Assembly (NCBI GenBank): GCA_028713575.1
Contig: JAQTOB010000001.1
Span: 70,379 to 102,378, forward strand
Direction of reading: 5' to 3'
Length of the DNA stretch: 32,000 nt
Origin: Patescibacteria group bacterium
GTDB lineage: Bacteria; Patescibacteriota; Patescibacteriia; UBA2591; UBA6264
In this document: positions 4,796 through 30,109 of the stretch, piece by piece
How the letters are laid out: every line of letters begins with the position of its first letter
How positions within the stretch are numbered: the first letter of the stretch is position 1
Notes under the pieces: generated by a model
What the model was told of the DNA's origin: nothing
The model's input: only the letters and a program-made list of their open reading frames with translations
Databases searched by the model: none
Made by a program: the position numbers and the translations under genes

Positions 4796-5914
4796 TTATT
4801 TGATTGCCTGAAAAATTTTGTAAGTTTCAAAAGCGCATTTTTCCCAAGAAAAATCTTTAACGTTTATAAATCCTTTTTGGCGCAATTGATTAACAATATT
4901 TTCATCTCTAATCACTTTTTCCATTATTCTTGCTAAATCATTGATGTCCTGAGGATAAAAATATAAAACTGCCGATTTACCTATTTCCGGTAAACAGCTT
5001 GATTTGCTGGAGATAACAGGACAACCGCAAGCCATTGCCTCAAGAAGCGGCAAACCAAAGCCTTCGTAAAGAGAGGGAAAAATGAAAGCTACTGCTCCAT
5101 TATAAAAATAAACTAAATCTTCTTCTTTAACATAACCCGGGAGAAAAAACATTTTTTTAACCAATTCTAATTCTTTTTTTATTTTCACATAACCAAAACC
5201 GCTTCTCCCGATTAAAACCATTTTAGGAACGTTTAATTTTTTTTGTTTTATTAATTTTTTATAAGCGTTAATTAACGCAATAATATTTTTTTTACTCTCA
5301 ATCCTCCCCACATAAAGAAAATACGGTTTTTCAATCTTGTAATTTTGAAGAACTGAATTTATTTTTTCCAAATCTTTTTCTTGATAAAAAACTTTTTCGT
5401 TATAGCCCTCGTGAACAACCTCTATTCTATTCTCTTTCACTTTATAAAATTTAAGGACTTCTTCTTTAGTAAATCTTGAAGGAACGATTATTTTATTTGC
5501 CTGACGAGCCGCCCGCCAATAAACCAAATTAAGATAAATTCTTTGCCAAAGAGAATAGGCCTTTTTAAAACGTTTAAAACCTAAATCATGAATGGTTATT
5601 ACTGATTTAATCGGACAAATAATCGGCAGACAATGAGCCGGAACAAATAAAATATCTGGTGGATTAAATAACATTTCTGTGGCCAGTCTTATCTGTGTCC
5701 ATAAATATTTTACCGGCCAATGCAATATTTTACTCCGCCAATTTTCAGGCAATGTTGCTAAATCATGTTTTAATTTGTCAGAAGAATATAAAATAAATTT
5801 ATCCCCTTGATTTAAAGGGATTTTTTTCAATTCTTGAATCAAATAATATGAATACCATCCAATACCTGTTTTTTGTTTTTGATTAGCCCGGGAGGCATCT
5901 ATTCCAATTACCAT
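4796..5914 (-). CDS. glycosyltransferase family 4 (GT-B fold)
   Basis: C-terminal EX7E-type motif region FIFPSLYEGFGLPLLEAMACGCPVISS. Start overlaps the mreB stop (TAATG). Confidence 0.8.
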   Translation of the reverse strand: MVIGIDASRANQKQKTGIGWYSYYLIQELKKIPLNQGDKFILYSSDKLKHDLATLPENWRSKILHWPVKYLWTQIRLATEMLFNPPDILFVPAHCLPIICPIKSVITIHDLGFKRFKKAYSLWQRIYLNLVYWRAARQANKIIVPSRFTKEEVLKFYKVKENRIEVVHEGYNEKVFYQEKDLEKINSVLQNYKIEKPYFLYVGRIESKKNIIALINAYKKLIKQKKLNVPKMVLIGRSGFGYVKIKKELELVKKMFFLPGYVKEEDLVYFYNGAVAFIFPSLYEGFGLPLLEAMACGCPVISSKSSCLPEIGKSAVLYFYPQDINDLARIMEKVIRDENIVNQLRQKGFINVKDFSWEKCAFETYKIFQAIK

Positions 5915-6921
5915 TATTTCATGGCTAAAATACTTCTTTTGTATGATTCTAAATTGTCTAAGGCCATGCCCGTTCCTCGCGCCACTGAAAGCAATGGTTC
6001 ATCGGCCAAATAAGCAGGAACGCCTATTTCTTTGGTTAATAATTTTTCAAAATTTCTCAATAAAGAACTTCCTCCGGACAAAACCATACCCTTTTCCATC
6101 ACGTCAGCGGACAATTCCGGCGGCGTTTCATAAAGCACTGATTTAACCGCTATTACAATTGCTTTTAACTCGTCTTGAATTGCCTCTGTAACGTCATCGG
6201 AATCAATGGTAATGACCCGAGGCAAACCTAAAATCATATCCCTTCCCTTAATATCTAGTTTGAGTTTTTTTTCTAATGGCAACGCTGATCCTATTTTTAT
6301 TTTAACTTCTTCGGCTGTTCTTTCTCCAATCGCCAAATTATATTTTTTTCTAATAAAAGTGGCAATAGCATAATCAAATTTATTTCCGGCGACTCTGACC
6401 GAAGTGCAAGAAACAATTCCTCCCAAAGAAATAACCGCCGCTTCGGTTGTTCCGCCGCCAATATCAATAATCATGTGGCCTGAAGCTGAACCAATTGGTA
6501 TATTTGAGCCAATGGCGGCCGCAATCGGTTCCTTAATAATATAAGCGGCCTTGGCTCCAGCCCTCATAGTAGCGTCAACCACGGCTCTTCTTTCAGAAGA
6601 AGTACAGCCGCCGGGAACAGCTACCATCACTTCTGGACGAAAAATATTAAAACGGCCAACCACTTTACCGATGAAATACTTTAACATTGCTTCTGTGGTT
6701 TTATAATCGGCAATAACTCCGTCTTTTAATGGCTTTTTCGCCACAATTGTATCCGGCGTCCGACCTATCATCTCTTTGGCCTCATCACCAACGGCTAAAA
6801 CGCTCTTATCTATAGTGGAAATGGCGACGACAGAAGGTTCATTGGTAACGATTCCCTTATTTGGCAAATAAACAAGAATATTTGTTGTTCCTAAATCAAT
6901 ACCTATTTTTTTATTAAACAT
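5914..6921 (-). CDS. mreB: rod-shape determining actin homologue MreB
   Basis: IGIDLGTTNILVY, EPSVVA, DGVIADY, IDIGGGTTE and SGGSSLLRNF are canonical MreB/actin-fold phosphate and adenosine motifs. Confidence 0.95.
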   Translation of the reverse strand: MFNKKIGIDLGTTNILVYLPNKGIVTNEPSVVAISTIDKSVLAVGDEAKEMIGRTPDTIVAKKPLKDGVIADYKTTEAMLKYFIGKVVGRFNIFRPEVMVAVPGGCTSSERRAVVDATMRAGAKAAYIIKEPIAAAIGSNIPIGSASGHMIIDIGGGTTEAAVISLGGIVSCTSVRVAGNKFDYAIATFIRKKYNLAIGERTAEEVKIKIGSALPLEKKLKLDIKGRDMILGLPRVITIDSDDVTEAIQDELKAIVIAVKSVLYETPPELSADVMEKGMVLSGGSSLLRNFEKLLTKEIGVPAYLADEPLLSVARGTGMALDNLESYKRSILAMK

Positions 6922-26414: not shown

Positions 26415-26491
26415 GGTCCGTTGGTGTAGAGGCCCAACACATCTGCCTGTCACGCAGAAGATCACGGGTTCGAATCCCGTACGGACCGCCA
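26415..26491 (+). tRNA. tRNA-Asp (anticodon GTC), CCA encoded
   Basis: GGTCCGT-TG-GTGT-AGAGGCCCA-ACAC-A-TCTGC-CTGTCAC-GCAGA-AGATC-ACGGG-TTCGAAT-CCCGT-ACGGACC-G-CCA. Confidence 0.95.
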
Positions 26492-26529
26492 CTATCCTAC
26501 TCCCTTTGGGCTTCGGAATGGCAAGCCAT
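26492..26529 (+). repeat. Y block, copy 1 (38 nt immediately 3' of tRNA-Asp)
   Basis: CTATCCTACTCCCTTTGGGCTTCGGAATGGCAAGCCAT recurs at 28048-28085 with 33/38 identity, again directly after a ...GCCA end. Confidence 0.7.
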
Positions 26530-26534
26530 TGTTT

Positions 26535-26563
26535 AAAATAGAGTTATTCGTTCTATTTTTTTA
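26535..26563 (+). terminator. weak AU-rich intrinsic terminator after tRNA-Asp (Z block, copy 1)
   Basis: AAAATAGAG-TTATTCG-TTCTATTTTTTT. A homologous hairpin is at 28164-28188. Confidence 0.4.
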
Positions 26564-26575
26564 TTTAACACTTAC

Positions 26576-26591
26576 AAAAAGTTTTCCACAG
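26576..26591 (+). promoter_or_regulatory. W box copy 1 (AAAAAGTTTTCCACAG)
   Basis: One of three copies of the 16-nt motif AAAAAG-WTWT-MCACAG. This one ends 29 nt upstream of the -10 box at 26621. Confidence 0.5.
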
Positions 26592-26598
26592 TCCAAAA

Positions 26599-26626
26599 TT
26601 GACAAAATCACTATTTATGTTATAAA
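26599..26626 (+). promoter_or_regulatory. sigma70-like promoter (extended -10)
   Basis: TTGACA (26599-26604), 16 nt, TGt-TATAAA (26621-26626). Confidence 0.5.
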
Positions 26627-26632
26627 TAAATA

Positions 26633-26697
26633 GTGCTTGTGGGCGAAAGCCCCGTTCAGCTAATTATCCATAAGCTGAAAAACAGGCACTTTTTTTA
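26633..26697 (+). ncRNA. candidate ~65-nt small RNA folding as a three-way junction and ending in a U7 tract
   Basis: P1 is GTGCTTGT (26633-40) paired with ACAGGCAC (26682-89), including a G-U pair that exists only on the plus strand. P2 is GGGC-GAAA-GCCC (26641-52). P3 is TTCAGCT-11 nt-AGCTGAA (26655-79). A T7 run follows (26690-96). The predicted start is about 7 nt after the -10 box. Confidence 0.4.
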
Positions 26698-26698
26698 T

Positions 26699-27184
26699 TT
26701 ATTCTTCATTAATGCCCCGAGTTGCTAATCTTCTTATTCTATCTAAAGAATTGCCCTTTAAATCCATTGCTGGCATTATACTCCAGAATATTATTTTTCC
26801 ATCTCCCACCCTTCTAATAACAACCTTGATTCTTATCATATTTTCCTCTTTACCAACTATAGCAATAAAGCCCCAATATTCTCTAATCTTATTTATTACC
26901 AACTCGGATTTATTTTTCTTTTCTTTTATAGGAATAAAATCTTTTCTATATTCTTGTACTGTTCCGGATTTCTGAATTATTTTTATTGCCGCAGGTAAAA
27001 AGCTAAATTTAAAAATTTGCTCATTTTTGTCTCTTTCCCGGCGAGCAGAATATCTTAAATGGTGAAAACCATCGGAATTAAATGTAACCTTACAATCAAA
27101 ATAAGGGCAATAAATTTCTTTATTTTTAGAAAAAATCTCTTTAGACTTTCGAAAAAATTCTTGATATTTATTTTCGTTTTCCAT
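26699..27184 (-). CDS. orphan 161-aa protein, unknown function
   Basis: Clean ORF starting at ATG. No TM segment and no motif I can name. It has a conserved-looking N-terminal CPYFDCKVTFNSDGFHHLRYS and C-terminal IRIKVVIRRVGDGKIIFWSIMP. Confidence 0.65.
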   Translation of the reverse strand: MENENKYQEFFRKSKEIFSKNKEIYCPYFDCKVTFNSDGFHHLRYSARRERDKNEQIFKFSFLPAAIKIIQKSGTVQEYRKDFIPIKEKKNKSELVINKIREYWGFIAIVGKEENMIRIKVVIRRVGDGKIIFWSIMPAMDLKGNSLDRIRRLATRGINEE

Positions 27185-27190
27185 AAAAAA

Positions 27191-27221
27191 TTAGTTAACA
27201 TTATATTACAATATTAACTAA
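27191..27221 (-). promoter_or_regulatory. hairpin plus U6 immediately 5' of the 161-aa ORF start (attenuator, terminator or operator-like inverted repeat)
   Basis: Minus strand reads TTAGTTAATA-11 nt-TGTTAACTAA followed by TTTTTT then ATG. The 10-bp stem includes a U-G pair valid only on the minus strand. Confidence 0.4.
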
Positions 27222-27264
27222 TATTTTGGCATAAATCAACTAAAATAATAATAATTATTAATTT

Positions 27265-27280
27265 AAAAAGATATCCACAG
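27265..27280 (+). promoter_or_regulatory. W box copy 3 (AAAAAGATATCCACAG)
   Basis: Ends 29 nt upstream of the extended -10 box TGT-TATAAT (27307-27315). Confidence 0.5.
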
Positions 27281-27321
27281 ATAGAGCTACCGTAATTATT
27301 AAAATATGTTATAATAAATTC

Positions 27322-27428
27322 ATAAATCAAAAGCCTCCAAACAATCTGGAGACTCTTGATAAGTGAAAATTAATTTTCACTTTGTGCGTTTTTTGGTGAA
27401 TCGTTTTCAGAACGGTTCACTTTGTTTT
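27322..27428 (+). ncRNA. candidate ~105-nt small RNA, antisense to the 3' end of the 56-aa ORF
   Basis: Downstream of TGTTATAAT (27307-15). Contains hairpins CTCCA-7 nt-TGGAG (27335-51) and AAGTGAAAA-TTAA-TTTTCACTT (27361-82). The terminator is GTGAATCGTT-TTCAG-AACGGTTCAC (27396-420) followed by TTTGTTTT; its U-G pair works only on the plus strand. Confidence 0.35.
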
Positions 27429-27540
27429 GGAAAAAATTTCTATTATTTCCTGTTTCAAAGCAGAAAGCTCGTTTGTCATAATCTCTGGCATAAATACGAG
27501 TACCGTCTTTCAACGTAATCCACGCTCTAAAAATGAGCAT
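27370..27540 (-). CDS. possible 56-aa hydrophilic ORF (below the track cutoff)
   Basis: Hand translation: MLIFRAWITLKDGTRIYARDYDKRAFCFETGNNRNFFQNKVNRSENDSPKNAQSEN*. No obvious SD. An open frame of this length could arise by chance in AT-rich DNA. Confidence 0.3.
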   Translation of the reverse strand: MLIFRAWITLKDGTRIYARDYDKRAFCFETGNNRNFFQNKVNRSENDSPKNAQSEN

Positions 27541-27544
27541 ATGA

Positions 27545-27805
27545 TTTTTGTTTATCCGGCATTTAAAATCGTCCGGCTAAATGTTTAAAAAACCATAGAT
27601 TTTAATTGAATAAACAAAATCCACCAAAGGCAACTTCTCTGCCTCGAACCAGTGATTACAGAAAAATTAATGTAATACGAAGTTCGTCGGCAAATGTTAG
27701 GGTCTCCGACAAACCATAAAAAGTTTGGCAAAGAAGCTCCCTTTGATGGACCACCGTGGAGTTACTTGGTGTAGTAGTTGCCCCCTTGACCCTAATCAAG
27801 GTATA
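27545..27805 (-). ncRNA. structured RNA element of about 260 nt (long leader of the 56-aa ORF, or an independent ncRNA)
   Basis: No ORF, and locally higher GC. Minus-strand helices are CCUUGA-UUAGGG-UCAAGG (27784-801), GGCAA/UUGCC (27778-82 with 27727-31), GUUUGUCGG-15 nt-CCGACGAAC (27682-714, whose U-G pair becomes a C-A mismatch on the plus strand), AUUACA-10 nt-UGUAAU (27655-76) and AGGCA-7 nt-UGCCU (27628-44). Loop UUAGGGUC (27788-95) is perfectly complementary to loop GACCCUAA (27697-704). Confidence 0.45.
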
Positions 27806-27990
27806 AATTTAATAACAAAAGAACAATTATTCTTATATTTAATAGTAATGTTCCCCTCTTTATATTAGACGATAAAAACTGAATTTTGTTACACTATTTT
27901 CAACCAAAAATTAACTCATTTTAATTAAAAACCATTTAATCTTTAAATTTTTTGATTCACATTAGAACTTACAAACGAGGAAATGCCGAG

Positions 27991-28047
27991 ATTTACTGTT
28001 ATTTCCTCCCAATCAAGAATTCTGAAATCGTCCCGTAAACCCCGCCA
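27991..28047 (+). repeat. T1: decayed direct copy of the tRNA-Asp 3' half (anticodon loop to CCA)
   Basis: ATTTACTGTTATTTCCTCCCAATCAAGAATTCTGAAATCGTCCCGTAAACCCCGCCA aligns with tRNA-Asp CTGTCAC...GGTTCGAATCCCGTACGGACCGCCA. It is 46/57 identical to T2 at 29359-29415. Confidence 0.7.
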
Positions 28048-28085
28048 TTATCCTACTCCCCTTGGGCTTCGGAATGGTAAATCAT
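28048..28085 (+). repeat. Y block, copy 2
   Basis: TTATCCTACTCCCCTTGGGCTTCGGAATGGTAAATCAT; 33/38 identical to 26492-26529. Confidence 0.7.
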
Positions 28086-28139
28086 AAAATATTGCCAAAA
28101 ATAATTAGGTATTCCGTAGCTTAAAAAGCGAAGGATACT

Positions 28140-28155
28140 CGTCCGGACCGCCACT
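28140..28155 (+). repeat. third copy of the last 16 nt of the tRNA-Asp region
   Basis: CGTCCGGACCGCCACT versus tRNA-Asp CGTACGGACCGCCACT (26478-26493), 15/16 identical. Confidence 0.7.
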
Positions 28156-28163
28156 TCCTTAAA

Positions 28164-28188
28164 ATAGAGTTATCTGCTCTATCTTTTT
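28164..28188 (+). terminator. intrinsic terminator (Z block, copy 2)
   Basis: ATAGAG-TTATCTG-CTCTAT followed by CTTTTT. Homologous to 26535-26563. Confidence 0.5.
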
Positions 28189-28201
28189 ATTTATTTCTTA
28201 T

Positions 28202-28217
28202 AAAAAGTTATACACAG
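28202..28217 (+). promoter_or_regulatory. W box copy 2 (AAAAAGTTATACACAG)
   Basis: Ends 30 nt upstream of the -10 box TATTAT (28248-53). Confidence 0.5.
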
Positions 28218-28225
28218 GTTAAGTA

Positions 28226-28263
28226 TTGTAATTTCTTGTTCTTGTGGTATTATTATACCACAA
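28226..28263 (+). promoter_or_regulatory. promoter of the XRE-ImmA operon, overlapped by a perfect palindromic operator
   Basis: TTGTAA (28226-31), 16 nt, TATTAT (28248-53). The palindrome TTGTGGTAT-TATT-ATACCACAA (28242-28263) covers the -10 box. Confidence 0.5.
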
Positions 28264-28295
28264 AGGTCCTTATATTAATAAAAACTAAAAAAATT

Positions 28296-28673
28296 ATGAA
28301 AAATAACAATTTACAAAAATTTGGTCAAAAATTAAAAGAATTACGAATTAACAAAGGTTTAACTCTTAGAAAAATGTGTAAAAAGGTAGGTTATGACCCC
28401 AGTAATTGGAGTAAAATAGAAAGAGGCAGAATCCCTCCCCCTTCTAATGAAAAAATACTAAATAAATGGGCTGAAGCATTGGGATTGATAAATTCTATAG
28501 AAATTAAAAAATTTATAAGCGATGCGCAAATAGCACAAGGATTAATCCCGTCCGATATTATGAAAGAAGAAGATATTACAGAATATCTACCAGCTTTTTT
28601 TAGGTCCATAAAAAAAGAAAAAATGACCAAAAAAGATATAGAAGAATTAATAAAATTAATCAGAAAAAGTTAA
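28296..28673 (+). CDS. XRE/Cro-CI family helix-turn-helix transcriptional regulator
   Basis: FGQKLKELRINKGLTLRKMCKKVGYDPSNWSKIERGR is the canonical HTH_3 pattern. Start taken at ATG 28296; the track start at 28236 is a TTG inside the promoter/operator. Confidence 0.85.
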   Translation: MKNNNLQKFGQKLKELRINKGLTLRKMCKKVGYDPSNWSKIERGRIPPPSNEKILNKWAEALGLINSIEIKKFISDAQIAQGLIPSDIMKEEDITEYLPAFFRSIKKEKMTKKDIEELIKLIRKS

Positions 28674-29281
28674 ATGGAAATTCCGTACCTTGATGACGAA
28701 AAAATTAAAAAAATAGCGGATAGTTTTAGGGTTAAATTTTCTGACAATTCAATTCCTGTAGAAATGGAAGAGATTATAGAATTGAGACTAAAAATGTATA
28801 TTGCTCTATCGCCGGGGCTAAAATATCTCCAAGGAATAGATATGATAATAATGTCTAACTTCAAATCTATTTATGTTGACGAAAATATTTATTCTGACGA
28901 AACTCAAAAAAATAGATTAAGATTCTCTTACGCCCACGAAATAGGACATTTCGTTTTACACAAAGATATTTACAAAAAATTTGGGATAAAAGATTGGAAA
29001 AATTTTTACAACATCCAAAAAAAGAATCTTATCAAAAAAACATTAAAAGAATTGACAAACAAGCTGATATTTTTGCGGGATATCTTCTTATGCCAGAAGA
29101 TAGATTGGAAATTGAAAAAAATCAAATATTAGAATCATTAGATATAGAATTATTATCTAAAATAAAATCTATGCCGAAAGAAACACTAAATCAATTATTA
29201 GCTTCGCAGTTATCAATTATTTTTGGCGTTTCTCAGATGGCTATGTTTATAGCATTAAAAAAACTTGAAAACAAAAAATAA
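28674..29281 (+). CDS. ImmA/IrrE family (COG2856-like) zinc metallopeptidase, split by a -1 frameshift (pseudogene or recoding)
   Basis: Frame 0 carries the HEXXH motif (SYAHEIGHFVLH). The -1 frame carries the family's downstream motif (DKQADIFAGYLLMP). The frames can be joined at A AAA AAG (29018-29024), giving about 202 aa. The ATG abuts the XRE stop codon. Confidence 0.75.
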
Positions 29282-29358
29282 TTACTTAATTTTTAAAAGC
29301 CATCTCAAACATATTTAAATATTATTTAATTCCGAGAATAATTTTTTAATAAACCAAA

Positions 29359-29415
29359 ATTTACTGTCACTTCCCCTCAATTCATAGTTCTGAAATCGTC
29401 CCGTAGACCTTGCCA
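29359..29415 (+). repeat. T2: second decayed copy of the tRNA-Asp 3' half
   Basis: ATTTACTGTCACTTCCCCTCAATTCATAGTTCTGAAATCGTCCCGTAGACCTTGCCA. It retains the exact Asp anticodon-loop heptamer CTGTCAC. Confidence 0.7.
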
Positions 29416-29429
29416 GTAAAAACGTTCGG

Positions 29430-29516: not shown

Positions 29517-29533
29517 TAACCGCTTTATACAAA

Positions 29534-29605
29534 TGCCCCCACCAGGAATCGAACCTGGGTCTTATCCTCCGCAAGGACACACTCTATCCATTGAGCTATG
29601 AGGGC
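29534..29605 (-). tRNA. tRNA-Arg (anticodon GCG)
   Basis: GCCCTCA-TA-GCTC-AATGGATA-GAGT-G-TGTCC-TTGCGGA-GGATA-AGAC-CCAGG-TTCGATT-CCTGG-TGGGGGC-A. Has an A20-type D-loop. CCA is not encoded. Confidence 0.85.
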
Positions 29606-29614
29606 ATTAAAATC

Positions 29615-30109
29615 TTATATTTTTAACCAATGATTTATTCTATCAATAATGTTTTCTTCTCCTCTTTCCGCGTCTTCCTCTAAATATTCTTTTAATATTT
29701 TTCTGACTTCTAAAGGATTCTGCTTCTCCAAAGAAACAGAAATATCCGGAATTAAGGCCTTCTTTAAATCAAAATAAAGTCTTTTCGTCTCCGGCGGTCG
29801 ATAAGCCAAGTGAAAATTTTTTATTTCTGTCCATTCATAAAATTTTGAACTAATCATTATTCCGTCTTCAAAAATTTTAAATTCAACATTAAGAGGAATT
29901 CTTTTTAAGTTAAGAAATATTACTAATCCTGATAAAAATAAAATTATTGCAAACAAAAAATTGGAAGTAAAAATAGCATAAATTATAAAAAATAATAACA
30001 GCGAACCGCTTATAACATGCCAAGATTTTCCTCTTTGATATTGCGGGTATTCAGGAAAATCCCATGATAAAAGAATTTGACCATAATTCTTTATTTCTTC
30101 TTCAATCAT
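29615..30109 (-). CDS. small membrane protein with two TM helices, unknown function
   Basis: 164-aa ORF. TM hairpin (SGSLLLFFIIYAIFTSNFLFAIILFLSGLVIFL) followed by a soluble acidic C-terminal domain. Confidence 0.6.
   Translation of the reverse strand: MIEEEIKNYGQILLSWDFPEYPQYQRGKSWHVISGSLLLFFIIYAIFTSNFLFAIILFLSGLVIFLNLKRIPLNVEFKIFEDGIMISSKFYEWTEIKNFHLAYRPPETKRLYFDLKKALIPDISVSLEKQNPLEVRKILKEYLEEDAERGEENIIDRINHWLKI

Follow-up and report, generated by a model that had tools for sequence, protein, structure and literature searches.

A small-genome Patescibacteria (CPR) bacterium carries two short gene cassettes, both free of a recombinase gene, directly 3' of a tRNA-Asp gene, and the locus raises the question of how such units came to be stacked there. 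No recombinase gene is encoded anywhere in the window (the whole stretch of 32 kb analysed here, in which all positions are numbered), in agreement with the original prediction, which had found none in the units. We propose, with a probability of roughly 0.55, that this 3-kb segment is a two-cassette array at the tRNA-Asp 3' end and one example of a cassette system that some Patescibacteria possess. Its best reading is a tandem accretion of recombinase-gene-free miniature elements (CIME-like or integron-like) by site-specific recombination in trans.

Organisation of the locus

The features of the array and its flanks are the following.

26415-26491, plus strand: tRNA-Asp(GTC) with encoded CCA (ARAGORN; Rfam 67.9 bits)
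26492-26529, plus strand: Y block, an insertion of about 36 nt between the tRNA end (GCCACTATCCT) and the terminator
26533-26561, plus strand: intrinsic-terminator-like hairpin TTAAAATAGAGTTATTCGTTCTATTTTTT, conserved first part of the cassette near-end module
26576-26626, plus strand: sRNA1 promoter, with W box 1 AAAAAGTTTTCCACAG (26576-26591), -35 TTGACA (26599-26604) and extended -10 TGTTATAAA (26618-26626)
26631-26696, plus strand: sRNA1, a three-way-junction RNA of about 65 nt with its own terminator (fold z = -5.5)
26699-27184, minus strand: ORF161, cargo of unit 1, from a large uncharacterised Patescibacteria protein family
27265-27432, plus strand: W box 2 (27265-27280), extended -10 TGTTATAAT (27307-27315) and predicted sRNA2
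27370-27540, minus strand: ORF56, an orphan ORF
27610-27790, minus strand: predicted multi-branched structured RNA, upstream of ORF56
27980-28048, plus strand: T1, distal end of unit 1 (nhmmer against the T-family profile, 67.3 bits, E 3.5e-19)
28048-28139, plus strand: Y' block (28048-28085) and a spacer of about 50 nt
28140-28161, plus strand: T3, tRNA-Asp 3' end remnant and spacer (CGTCCGGACCGCCACTTCCT)
28159-28262, plus strand: unit 2 near-end module, with terminator' (28159-28187), W box 3 (28202-28217), promoter and palindrome
28296-28673, plus strand: XRE-family HTH repressor, CapH/ImmR-like (Pfam HTH_19 4e-13; PADLOC CapH 1e-9)
28674-29281, plus strand: ImmA/IrrE (M78) metallopeptidase, CapP-like, split by a 1-nt frameshift in the window
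29349-29415, plus strand: T2, distal end of unit 2 (nhmmer against the same profile, 54.7 bits, E 3e-15)
29533-29606, minus strand: tRNA-Arg(GCG), conserved distal flank of the array
29615-30109: DUF5673 gene, conserved distal flank together with tRNA-Arg

The direct repeats initially noticed in this segment lie far above chance. T1 (27986-28050) and T2 (29354-29418) share 78% identity over 65 nt, or 46/57 in local alignment, with a score of 59 against 12.9±2.3 in shuffled sequences, none of 2000 shuffles reaching 59, and their similarity is thus significant. Positions 26475-26529, which comprise the last 17 nt of the tRNA and the Y block (33/38 identical), recur at 28031-28085 with 84% identity over 55 nt, and the terminator and W box (26533-26591) recur at 28159-28217 with 83% identity over 59 nt. 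In all 32 kb there are exactly three W boxes AAAGWTWTMCACAG, each of them within the locus. The announced third copy of the tRNA end was also recovered, its core CGTCCGGACCGCCACT (28140-28155) matching the tRNA-Asp end at 15 of 16 positions, a score reached by 2 of 2000 shuffles. This copy, T3, had been treated as part of a minor insert. It is instead a genuine displaced tRNA-Asp end and the attR-like border of the unit 1 insertion: it carries the CCGGACC acceptor strand of the relatives and occupies the tRNA-end position of loci L041 and L054, and the tRNA end and T3 form a direct repeat (15/16 nt and the spacer) around unit 1. The tRNA-Asp gene itself is the proximal anchor of the array, in an attL- or attI-like position. 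The proposed stack of discrete recombinase-gene-free units stands with its two members, whose borders (given as 26592-27990 and 28048-29358) need shifting.

In unit 1, sRNA1 is convergent with ORF161 and folds into three helices (P1 GUGCUUG/CAGGCAC, P2 GGGC-GAAA-GCCC and P3 UUCAGCU/AGCUGAA). It has no match in Rfam, where it is unannotated, and it is paired with the 161-aa protein family in all 11 distinct loci examined across Patescibacteria, with covariation support from compensatory changes in P1 and a tetraloop that varies but is always GNRA; a W box (TTATCCACA-like) precedes the sRNA1 promoter in most loci with ORF161 homologues. The protein has 349 homologues and no match in Pfam, PHROG, NCBIfam or PADLOC, and its AF2 model (pLDDT 87) found no fold match in the PDB. 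Among the RNAs of unit 1, sRNA1 has the strongest support. The pair is conserved in many genomes, mostly without cassette context, and we regard sRNA1 and ORF161 as a cellular-type conserved gene pair, not phage debris. Further along, the predicted sRNA2 consists of three hairpins, the last terminator-like, and is antisense to the 3' part of ORF56 (fold z = -3.8). ORF56 matches only itself among 5.8 billion proteins, gives no tblastn match in the compared loci and is probably not a conserved gene. The minus-strand RNA at 27610-27790 folds at -70 kcal/mol against -46.6±4.3 in shuffles (z = -5.45; plus strand z = -2.2), and has neither an Rfam match nor a homologue in the compared loci. A cargo made up mostly of RNA, as originally proposed for both units, is a property of unit 1 only.

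Both XRE and ImmA were confirmed in unit 2. ImmA is intact (202 aa) in L010, and this intact copy matches PADLOC CapP at 8e-20. The near-end module is conserved in L041, L054 and L033 and includes a palindrome TGTGGTAT-N4-ATACCACA (28243-28262) that overlaps the -10 of the promoter and is likely the XRE operator. Amino acid identity among relatives is 86-90% for XRE and 72-82% for ImmA, that is, similar to or above that of EF-G (79%) and above that of L20 (77%) in the same genomes.

T elements at the cassette ends

T1 and T2 are members of a family of non-coding, unstructured elements of about 68 nt, of which 25 distinct copies from at least 15 Patescibacteria lineages align without gaps. A core of 18-19 nt is near-invariant, for copies retrieved with that core as bait, and is kept across distant lineages, GC-rich genomes included. 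T stands at cassette ends in L019, L022, L031 (five copies and two decayed ones), L033, L041, L042 (three copies), L044, L045, L054, L061 and others, and searches of IMG/VR, phage and plasmid collections gave no copy. All relevant frames contain stop codons, which, with the lack of structure, fits a protein-bound DNA site.

Only the last 30 nt or so of T imitate tRNA-Asp, from the T loop to the acceptor end, and they finish at the very position where a tRNA would. With softer gap costs, the match of the T consensus to the tRNA is limited to this T-loop-to-3'-end part (p~0.003), and the first 40 nt or so show no similarity to the anticodon/variable region (p~0.5); with strict gap costs, neither T1 (p~0.12) nor T2 (p~0.02) matches the tRNA half significantly. 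The description of T1 and T2 as tRNA 3' halves starting from the anticodon loop can thus not be upheld: the loop sequence CTGTCAC does read so in T2, but most other copies have YTGTTAT, both elements exceed the real tRNA half by 7 nt, and T has 4-5 extra nt in the T-loop region and a 5' part unrelated to the tRNA. Neither element is supported as a decayed or serially displaced tRNA half. T1 and T2 do resemble each other more than either resembles the tRNA, as first noted, because both belong to the T family.

T and tRNA-Asp are co-oriented in every locus containing both (window, L041, L054 and L061), and the T 3' end shifts towards the sequence of the resident tRNA. In L061, T reads AAGCACCGCAAA and the tRNA CAGCTCCGCAAA, neither with an encoded CCA; in the GC-rich L025, T reads GGCGCGCCACTTTTCT and tRNA-Arg GGCGCGCCACTTCTCT, and 105 nt further along there is a plain remnant of a tRNA end. 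In the lineage of the window, the acceptor-like heptamer AGACCCC of T mismatches the resident tRNA-Asp (CCGGACC or ACGGACC), so that either the crossover must be 3' of the heptamer or T must have been imported.

The Y block is missing in L041 and L054, and its core CTTCGGAATGG(C/T)AA is seen again after T elements: Y-like blocks lie 3' of T in L054 and L031 (position 12299), and a truncated Y (CGTTCGGAAT) followed by terminators lies downstream of T2. The composite of T, Y, spacer and tRNA end is also found in L054. As a separate observation, this composite with its T3-type end (window, L054 and L025) is not fully explained by one Campbell event.

Empty sites, variable arrays and rival explanations

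Empty sites, whose search in relatives had been suggested as a check, were found in related genomes, in the order L20, tRNA-Asp, terminator, W box, XRE, ImmA, T and tRNA-Arg. L041/L039/L056 and L054 show this order from L20 to T, with tRNA-Asp directly before the unit 2 cassette, and their region between the tRNA end and XRE aligns collinearly with the one between T3 and XRE in the window. This identifies unit 1 as an insertion that has the tRNA end and T3 as its borders. In further relatives, T junctions hold from one to at least five different cassettes. The expected presence/absence polymorphism exists between species but not among near-identical strains from five samples, which all have the same arrangement.

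Cassette cargos measure 0.6-4.7 kb, are often a single gene and in many cases are unrelated, and they share common end modules, T at the far end and terminator plus promoter at the near end; the hairpin at 26533-26561 also occurs 3' of tRNA-Asp in L041 and L054 and 3' of T in L031, L033 and L019. Identical cargos sit in different arrays: the ORF161/sRNA1 pair opens the array behind the tRNA in the window and L013, closes it ahead of tRNA-Arg in L022, and in L019 adjoins a PMT gene and has a T copy on each side. A gene of 187/191 aa, flanked on each side by T remnants, has 84% nucleotide identity in L042 and L031. The cargo is toxin-antitoxin and defence-like, with SocA/Panacea, PIN, SLFN-AlbA_2, an AriA/OLD-like ATPase and the CapH/CapP-like XRE-ImmA pair. 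This last cassette has three kinds of left neighbour, namely tRNA-Asp (L041, L054), T (L033) and T3 (window), all ending in GCCACT(A/T)YCC, so that the left breakpoint always lies in one stretch of ~10 nt, whichever of the three partners precedes it, whereas the sequence after its T was seen in four different versions.

Direct observation covers the repeats, the T family, the empty site, the variation in cargo and the common breakpoints. We infer site-specific joining by a recombinase whose gene lies elsewhere, probably a tyrosine integrase, as well as the exact crossover point at the junctions. Each cassette would consist of a near end with an intrinsic terminator and its own promoter (W-box type or a second, 'TGATATAYT' type), its cargo and a T far end. 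The first ~40 nt of T are element-specific, and T is best read as an element-borne, attP-derived attachment arm and core that would be kept at each internal junction and at attR and would recombine, around GCCA-YYAYCC, either with a second T or with the 3' end of tRNA-Asp. Unit 2 (XRE-ImmA-T2) would be an older, widely shared cassette and unit 1 (Y-terminator-W-sRNA1-ORF161-…-T1-Y') a later addition beside the tRNA, whose arrival would have displaced the earlier tRNA end that survives as T3. In favour of this explanation, a tyrosine integrase with XRE and ImmA lies within ~2-3 kb of a T in L044 and L068. Against it, no recombinase was found in the window or in consistent linkage to T, which is absent from the loci (L081-L084) of P0140, another member of the L044 integrase family, and no circular junction or excision product was observed. 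The uniform arrangement in the near-identical strains, the heptamer mismatch, the T-Y-spacer-T3 composite, the terminator after almost every T (which could also point to a role at the RNA level) and the negative searches of IMG/VR, phage and plasmid collections count against it as well.

A possible, though rather unlikely, explanation is that homologous recombination shuffles the cassettes with no dedicated recombinase, the repeats being its substrates and products and not att sites. DNA from relatives would be taken up and then swapped in, duplicated or deleted through RecA-dependent unequal crossover, the portable homology being the junction modules (T of ~68 nt, terminator and promoter) and the flanking tRNA genes. 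DNA-uptake machinery is common in Patescibacteria, the arrays and their surroundings contain no recombinase, and the integrase-T linkage is unproven in view of the P0140 loci. Moreover, the junction modules (~150-200 nt, 80-90% identity) are long and similar enough, and the conserved anchors L20/tRNA-Asp and tRNA-Arg/DUF5673 (the latter flank also in L039, L033, L042 and L022) enclose the array in several genomes. However, this explanation accounts neither for the near-invariant 19-nt T core in distant and GC-rich lineages, nor for the mimicry and tracking of the resident tRNA end by the T 3' end, the clustering of the XRE left breakpoint or the origin of the first T-flanked cassette of a new cargo.

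It appears improbable that T acts primarily at the RNA or expression level, as a 3'-end/terminator-associated motif or a small RNA with an anti-Shine-Dalgarno-like CCUCCC, the array being a cluster of promoter-gene-T-terminator modules reused by accessory genes near a tRNA hotspot and the likeness of T to tRNA being incidental or tied to RNA processing. In favour of such a role, T is strand-consistent and contains a conserved C-rich stretch UCCUCCCAAUC, and an intrinsic terminator, of varying sequence, comes 5-40 nt after nearly every copy. This terminator is equally well explained as the tRNA's own or as the near end of the next cassette. Against an RNA role, the T consensus secondary structure has 0 pairs and no covariation, its folding is not significant and no conserved promoter precedes it; the upstream gene lies on the opposite strand in L045, L057, L061 and at T1 of the window, so T is not generally a 3' UTR. 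T3-type tRNA-end remnants and cassette-wise variation would also be left unexplained.

Least probable are two unrelated, heavily decayed prophage or ICE remnants of large elements, lying side by side with their bodies deleted and their att scars decaying into the repeats, since, despite the typical prophage/ICE XRE-ImmA module with its frameshifted ImmA, the classical role of tRNA genes as island hotspots and the integrase-bearing relative of this module in L044, decaying scars should not keep 80-90% identity to T in many genomes, many small cargos that are unrelated to each other lie between the same end modules, no array examined holds phage or conjugation gene remnants and ORF161/sRNA1 is of cellular type. 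Of the two origins first offered, decayed prophage/ICE ends or miniature elements mobilised in trans, the latter fits better.

Comparison with known systems

Several known systems come close to the array. Acinetobacter plasmids have pdif modules which, like other Xer-dependent elements, carry small resistance or toxin-antitoxin cargos that host tyrosine recombinases move at short flanking sites. The modules described here likewise have small cargos and no recombinase of their own, but pdif sites are XerC/XerD sites of 28 bp whose inverted orientation alternates, whereas T copies measure ~68 nt, do not resemble dif, share one direct orientation and lie on the chromosome at a tRNA. Islands and prophages with tRNA-targeting tyrosine integrases share the target, a tRNA gene 3' end, and the tRNA-end direct repeat (T3), and the XRE-ImmA regulatory module is known from ICEBs1-like elements. 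They differ in that no integrase, excisionase, replication, structural or transfer gene is present here and in that T is a diverged tRNA mimic, whereas the att block of an island copies the tRNA 3' part.

CIMEs and the tandem accretion of ICE/IME-derived islands at tRNA genes have been described for Streptococcus elements related to ICESt1/ICESt3 (review PMC5704250). [quoted passage not shown] Unlike CIMEs, the units here are far smaller (often one gene) and can number five or more, they share one conserved far end and a terminator-plus-promoter near end in many genomes, and no ICE or IME parent sharing these ends was identified. No description of a comparable system in Patescibacteria was found in the searchable literature.

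Integrons (intI, attI and attC arrays, including sedentary chromosomal integrons) similarly hold one-directional small cassettes without a recombinase gene, each ended by a recombination-site-like element, with a fixed primary site at one end, a cargo rich in toxin-antitoxin and unknown-function genes, and a number and content of cassettes that differ between relatives. In contrast to integrons, no intI adjoins the array, T keeps its sequence and lacks structure where attC has a conserved hairpin and variable sequence, the cassettes appear to bring their own promoter and terminator in place of reliance on Pc, and the primary site is a tRNA 3' end. With its one to at least five different cassettes in related genomes, the tRNA-Asp site behaves like an integron-style site for gene swapping.

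The tRNA-Asp locus and the T element

The sequence of the window matches JGI contig Ga0378408_0000012 (517 kb), and the host genome is a low-GC (about 33%) genome of the Patescibacteria type. The locus lies between two housekeeping blocks, rpsL-rpsG-fusA, tmRNA, infC-rpmI-rplT and tRNA-Asp upstream, and tRNA-Arg(GCG), a DUF5673 gene and tRNA-Ser downstream. The remaining scanned ORFs of the window match housekeeping-type families, with no recombinase among them; within the window, the 26 kb before the locus and the 2.5 kb after it contain none, and the neighbours of tRNA-Asp are infC-rpmI-rplT, without a recombinase, as they are in the related locus L041 (L-numbers designate loci from other contigs). 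The repeats and motifs of the locus are the following.

27980-28048: T1, copy of the ~68-nt T element in unit 1, the cassette adjoining tRNA-Asp (T profile, E 3.5e-19)
29349-29415: T2, copy of the T element in unit 2, XRE–ImmA–T2 (T profile, E 3e-15)
26576-26591, 27265-27280 and 28202-28217: W boxes, a 16-nt promoter-associated motif that is essentially the DnaA-box consensus TTATCCACA
28243-28262: perfect palindrome TGTGGTAT-N4-ATACCACA, overlapping the -10 of the XRE promoter

The direct repeats described in the original prediction are real. T1 (27986-28050) and T2 (29354-29418) are 78% identical over 65 nt and match at 46 of 57 positions over 57 nt, an alignment score reached by 0/2000 shuffles. 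The last 17 nt of the tRNA and the 38-nt Y block that follows it recur as a 55-nt repeat at 28031-28085 (84%), and the terminator hairpin and W box recur at 28159-28217 (83%). A third copy of the tRNA end (T3) repeats the last 16 nt at 28140-28155 (15/16, score found in 2/2000 shuffles). The W box has three copies in 32 kb, all confined to the locus and each ~30 nt upstream of an extended -10. The picture of miniature recombinase-less elements stacked at a tRNA holds in outline, but not the nature then given to T1 and T2, read as 3' halves of tRNA-Asp starting at the anticodon loop. With strict gap costs this similarity is non-significant, and soft gap costs align only the part from the T-loop to the 3' end, GTTC-GAA----TCCCGTA…CCGCCA (p about 0.003); over its 5'-most 40 nt T shows no tRNA similarity (p about 0.5), and it is 7 nt longer than a true tRNA half. 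T1 and T2 thus resemble tRNA-Asp only from the T-loop to the 3' end, and with indels (p~0.003-0.02), whereas T3 is faithful over the last 16 nt. The CTGTCAC of T2 is not kept across the T family and was rejected as a conserved anticodon-loop core. Likewise, 28095-28139 is not a decayed 5' part of tRNA-Asp, its alignment being no better than shuffles (p 0.7-0.9).

The T family was collected with an 18-nt core, TTCTGAAATCGTCCCGTA, as bait, scanned through public sequence collections. Apart from chance matches, these scans gave loci in which the similarity runs over ~68 nt, and the resulting profile search yielded 25 distinct copies in a gap-free alignment, exactly two of them in the window. The hosts are Patescibacteria (Magasanikbacteria, Parcubacteria and unclassified Patescibacteria), with a few MAGs labelled otherwise. 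The reverse complement of T (M-A-G-x-T-G-R-F-Q-N…) resembles a gene start, but TAG stands at codon 9 in many copies, and ORFs end after 11, 20 or 35 codons while the nucleotide conservation runs on; the forward frames likewise hold stops. An alignment of 23 copies gave no consensus pairs, and T as a structured RNA or an attC-like hairpin was rejected on this result. T is therefore a sequence-conserved, unstructured element. Composites of T, Y block and T3 also fold no better than shuffles (z +0.9).

The conserved part of T stops where the tRNA stops (…CCCGT-N7-G(CCA)), and CCA is present at its end only in lineages whose tRNA-Asp gene encodes CCA. At L061, the 3' end of T departs from the family consensus toward the end of the resident tRNA-Asp, and at the GC-rich locus L025 two T-like copies end in GGCGCGCCACTTTTCT, which matches the end of the resident tRNA-Arg(CCG), GGCGCGCCACTTCTCT. 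Three pattern scans of IMG/VR, and searches of INPHARED phages and PLSDB plasmids, found no match to the T junction, and a phage or plasmid origin of the junction was rejected on this absence.

On four GC-rich contigs (L025, L030, L049 and L029, one from an Acidobacteriota MAG) the same 19-nt T core is fused to a different tRNA end (L025 5302-5334, 5440-5461 and 6350-6407; L030 3318-3351 and 5169-5202; L049 2813-2840; L029). This end matches locally, to tRNA-Arg(CCG) in L025; across L025, L030 and L049 the core is joined to the local tRNA-Arg end or to an unassigned tRNA end. Two T-core copies 1-2 kb apart flank VapBC, Fic/Doc and other small genes on these contigs. These cores suggest that Patescibacteria share the recombination system, or the site, with bacteria outside the group.

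Cassette arrangements in related loci

The loci compared share modules in different combinations, from the 5' to the 3' side:

L041, L039 and L056: IF3–L35–L20–tRNA-Asp–terminator–W box–XRE–ImmA–T–terminator–tRNA-Arg–DUF5673, with one cassette
L054: start as in L041; 3' of T, a tRNA-end remnant beyond a Y block and some 50 nt
L033: …143-aa gene–T–terminator–W–XRE–ImmA–tRNA-Arg–DUF5673
L042: …ImmA–T–(187, 209 and 261 aa)–T–W–(SocA/Panacea antitoxin and partner)–T–tRNA-Arg–DUF5673–RecG
L022: sRNA1–ORF161–T–tRNA-Arg–DUF5673
L019: T–W–sRNA1–ORF161–T, adjoining a PMT gene
L013: L20–tRNA-Asp–terminator–W–sRNA1–ORF160…
L061: tRNA-Asp–(196 aa)–T
L031: five T and two decayed T over 10 kb with unrelated cargos in between, including PIN, SLFN-AlbA_2/HATPase_c_4, an AriA/OLD-like ATPase and a DUF3800-like gene

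The empty site that the original prediction called for, an XRE gene directly after tRNA-Asp, was found in relatives, since the maps of L041 and L054 show this order. Indeed, window positions 28140-28300 (T3, the second terminator and W box, XRE promoter) align collinearly with L041 and L054 between the 3' end of tRNA-Asp and XRE, and thus unit 1 is an insertion adjoining the tRNA. The acceptor strand of T3, CCGGACC, is that of L041 and L054; the tRNA-Asp now in the window has ACGGACC, compensated by a change in its 5' strand. Judged by these alignments, T3 is the old tRNA-Asp end displaced by unit 1.

The left partner of the XRE cassette is tRNA-Asp, T or T3, and all of them end in GCCACT(A/T)YCC right before TAAAATAGAG; directly 3' of the T of this cassette, four different sequences are found. 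The 187/191-aa gene of L042 and L031 has 84% nucleotide identity between the two loci, with homology beginning just past T. Across the same genome pairs (window versus L041, L054 and L033), amino-acid identity of the XRE–ImmA pair (28296-29281 in the window) is 86-90% for XRE and 72-82% for ImmA, against 79% for EF-G, 77% for L20, 63% for IF3 and 54% for DUF5673. This conservation (at least that of EF-G and above that of L20) hints at lateral cassette exchange, and is also compatible with strong selection or constraint. Two stretches of the window have ~85% matches at unrelated positions in other arrays, the palindromic region upstream of ORF161 (TTAGTTAACATTATATTACAATATTAACTAA, 27185-27242) with L019 3809-3865 and the sRNA2 promoter (27295-27332) with L031 12423-12460; regulatory modules therefore also appear shuffled among cassettes.

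RNA and protein cargo and its promoters

The predicted RNAs and the main protein of unit 1 are as follows.

26631-26696, plus strand: sRNA1, small RNA of ~65 nt with its own promoter and terminator, fold z = -5.5
26699-27184, minus strand: ORF161, 161-aa protein of a family of at least 349 Patescibacteria proteins without annotation
27318-27432, plus strand: sRNA2 (predicted), with the second W-box promoter and three hairpins, the last a terminator, z = -3.8
27610-27790, minus strand: predicted structured RNA of ~180 nt, a long closing stem and three hairpins, -70 kcal/mol, z = -5.45

sRNA1 is a real, unannotated small RNA supported by covariation. It forms a three-way junction with compensatory changes in P1 (UA↔AU, UA→CG) and P3 (L079), and its tetraloop varies while staying GNRA (GAAA, GUAA, GCAA). 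It stands beside every ORF161 homologue examined (window, L013, L014, L016, L019, L022-24, L074, L076, L077, L079), at 11 distinct loci in unrelated neighbourhoods, nine convergent and two tandem. Searches of Pfam, PHROG, NCBIfam, PADLOC and PDB sequences gave no match for ORF161, and Foldseek found no PDB fold for its confident AF2 model (pLDDT 87). Together, sRNA1 and ORF161 look like a conserved RNA-protein pair of Patescibacteria. Independent short-read assemblies of the window's species break inside sRNA1 at a near-identical base (ends of L003, L004 and L006, starts of L010 and L011), as expected if an ultra-conserved sRNA1 common to co-occurring genomes collapses the assembly graph.

The rest of unit 1 (27185-27985) holds no conserved gene, ORF56 being an orphan. 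The predicted sRNA2 is antisense to the 3' part of ORF56. The 27610-27790 structure forms on the minus strand only and sits upstream of ORF56, and no counterpart of it turned up in Rfam or among the related loci compared. For both this RNA and sRNA2, the copies available for comparison are near-identical and the structures are predicted. Neither T nor sRNA1, sRNA2 or the minus-strand structure matched an Rfam family, whether in the window (E up to 5) or in eight related loci (gathering scores). The idea that the cargo is mostly RNA is therefore borne out for unit 1 (sRNA1 supported, the other two RNAs predicted) and not for unit 2, which is protein-coding with XRE and ImmA. The ImmA/CapP-like peptidase gene of the window (28674-29281) has a 1-nt frameshift, as in L011, and is intact (202 aa) in L010 (1150-1758), a near-identical contig from SRR12486999; the frameshift is either a recent pseudogenisation or a sequencing or assembly error.

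Three copies confined to the locus in 32 kb do not make the W box a genome-wide promoter motif, yet it is tied to the sRNA1 promoter elsewhere: in distant genomes (L013, L016, L019, L023/24, L074, L077, L079) it immediately precedes the -35, in either orientation. It may be bound by a transcription factor or by DnaA rather than being a mobile-element feature as such. A replication origin, considered from the DnaA-box-like W boxes, found no supporting skew signal at the locus. The palindrome of the XRE promoter, kept at the same position in L041, L054 and L033, is likely an XRE auto-operator. Its half-site and the W box both contain CCACA.

Proposed mechanism and comparison with known systems

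We propose, with a probability of about 0.3, that some Patescibacteria, possibly also other phyla, have a tRNA-based cassette-capture platform analogous to the integron, in which the tRNA-Asp 3' end would be the primary site and T the recombination site. It is just as tentative that T would be recognised by its sequence and not as a hairpin, and that a recombinase encoded elsewhere would move single-gene cassettes with their own promoters, many of them for defence or toxin-antitoxin functions. The simplest model, which we infer in its entirety, would be a Campbell-type site-specific recombination between (i) a cassette-borne T, which on the circular form precedes the terminator and promoter of that cassette, and (ii) the tRNA-Asp 3' end or the T of a resident cassette. 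Such a model would account for the common orientation of T and tRNA, for the way the 3' end of T imitates that of the tRNA (a core-type site has to look like its target), for the terminator after every T (that of the tRNA or that of the near end of the next cassette), for the shared breakpoints and the T3 remnant, and for array growth with the newest cassette adjoining the tRNA. Because AGACCCC, its own heptamer, is retained in every T and the acceptor of the tRNA stays functional, the exchange would take place at or 3' of GCCA, in GCCA-YYAYCC. The composite of T, Y block, spacer and tRNA end (window, L054, L025) would need at least one additional earlier event, or some further function.

No recombinase gene is present in the window or in the arrays of the related loci examined. 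At L044 and L068 a tyrosine integrase, XRE and ImmA lie 2-3 kb from a T, and the L044 integrase family has 765 homologues, widespread in Patescibacteria. Following this family did not lead to the recombinase: none of the 120 homologues listed of the 765 is on the 517-kb contig of the window, and the loci of another member (P0140) have no T. L044 also has two diverged T-like copies (GTTCGAATRGCGTYCCAT…GTCCCGCA, 5812-5850 and 6350-6388) after two successive single genes, downstream of a canonical T; the module of tyrosine integrase, ImmA and XRE lies upstream on the other strand, and the layout is integron-like.

Cassettes would also be shuffled, without any recombinase, if DNA that is taken up recombined homologously at the junction modules, but this leaves the conservation of T, the tRNA-end mimicry and the tight breakpoints unaccounted for. 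That T could act as an RNA is conceivable because a terminator nearly always follows on its 3' side; against this, T has neither structure nor a conserved promoter, and the gene before it is often on the opposite strand. Two unrelated decayed prophages fit poorly: a common set of end modules delimits many small cargos, and the arrays examined show no remnant of phage or conjugation genes.

Patescibacteria (CPR) have tiny genomes, and little is known of how accessory genes enter and leave them. If cassette capture at tRNA-Asp is true, the conserved end of the array would make T a concrete, searchable marker of the flexible genes of these bacteria, many of which resemble toxin-antitoxin or anti-phage defence genes. 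The locus offers a defined marker and a testable mechanism. Integron- or CIME-like accretion would extend to a new lineage with a different site, a sequence-conserved tRNA-end mimic. A by-product is the unannotated sRNA1, always paired with an uncharacterised protein family found in hundreds of Patescibacteria. Within the literature that was searchable, we came across no account of such arrays in Patescibacteria.

The array is not an integron, as all three defining features tested (intI, attC hairpin, promoterless cassettes) fail. An integron needs intI by attI, whereas no recombinase adjoins tRNA-Asp in the window or L041. Integron attC sites are imperfect inverted repeats (R''-L''/L'-R') forming a hairpin conserved in structure and not in sequence, whereas T is conserved in sequence, with no consensus pairs in 23 copies and no visible GTTRRRY/RYYYAAC pair. 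Integron cassettes are mostly promoterless and run from a common Pc, whereas each junction here has a terminator and, judged by sequence, a promoter-like module of the W box and extended -10 type or the TGATATAYT type. Xer/dif sites (pdif, IMEX) are ~28 bp with two partially palindromic 11-bp arms and a 6-bp spacer, and pdif sites alternate in orientation; all T are in direct orientation and no palindromic arm pair is seen in their alignment, so this definition does not cover them. Neither does that of MITE or IS-derived elements, with terminal inverted repeats and a fixed-length target-site duplication, because no inverted repeats bound the units, whose two ends are different modules; the inverted pairs found are AT-rich, no longer than 33 nt and 70-89% complementary. 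CIME-like features are direct repeats of att type derived from the 3' end of the target, as in unit 1, which the tRNA-Asp end and T3 enclose (15/16 plus spacer), in the 55-nt repeat (84%) and in L054 (tRNA-Asp … T–Y–T3'), with genes for integration, excision and transfer absent inside the elements. The units have att-type flanks and no recombination genes, as CIMEs do. Functionally they are closest to CIMEs (cis-mobilizable elements) with tandem accretion at tRNA genes (PMC5704250) and to integron cassette arrays.
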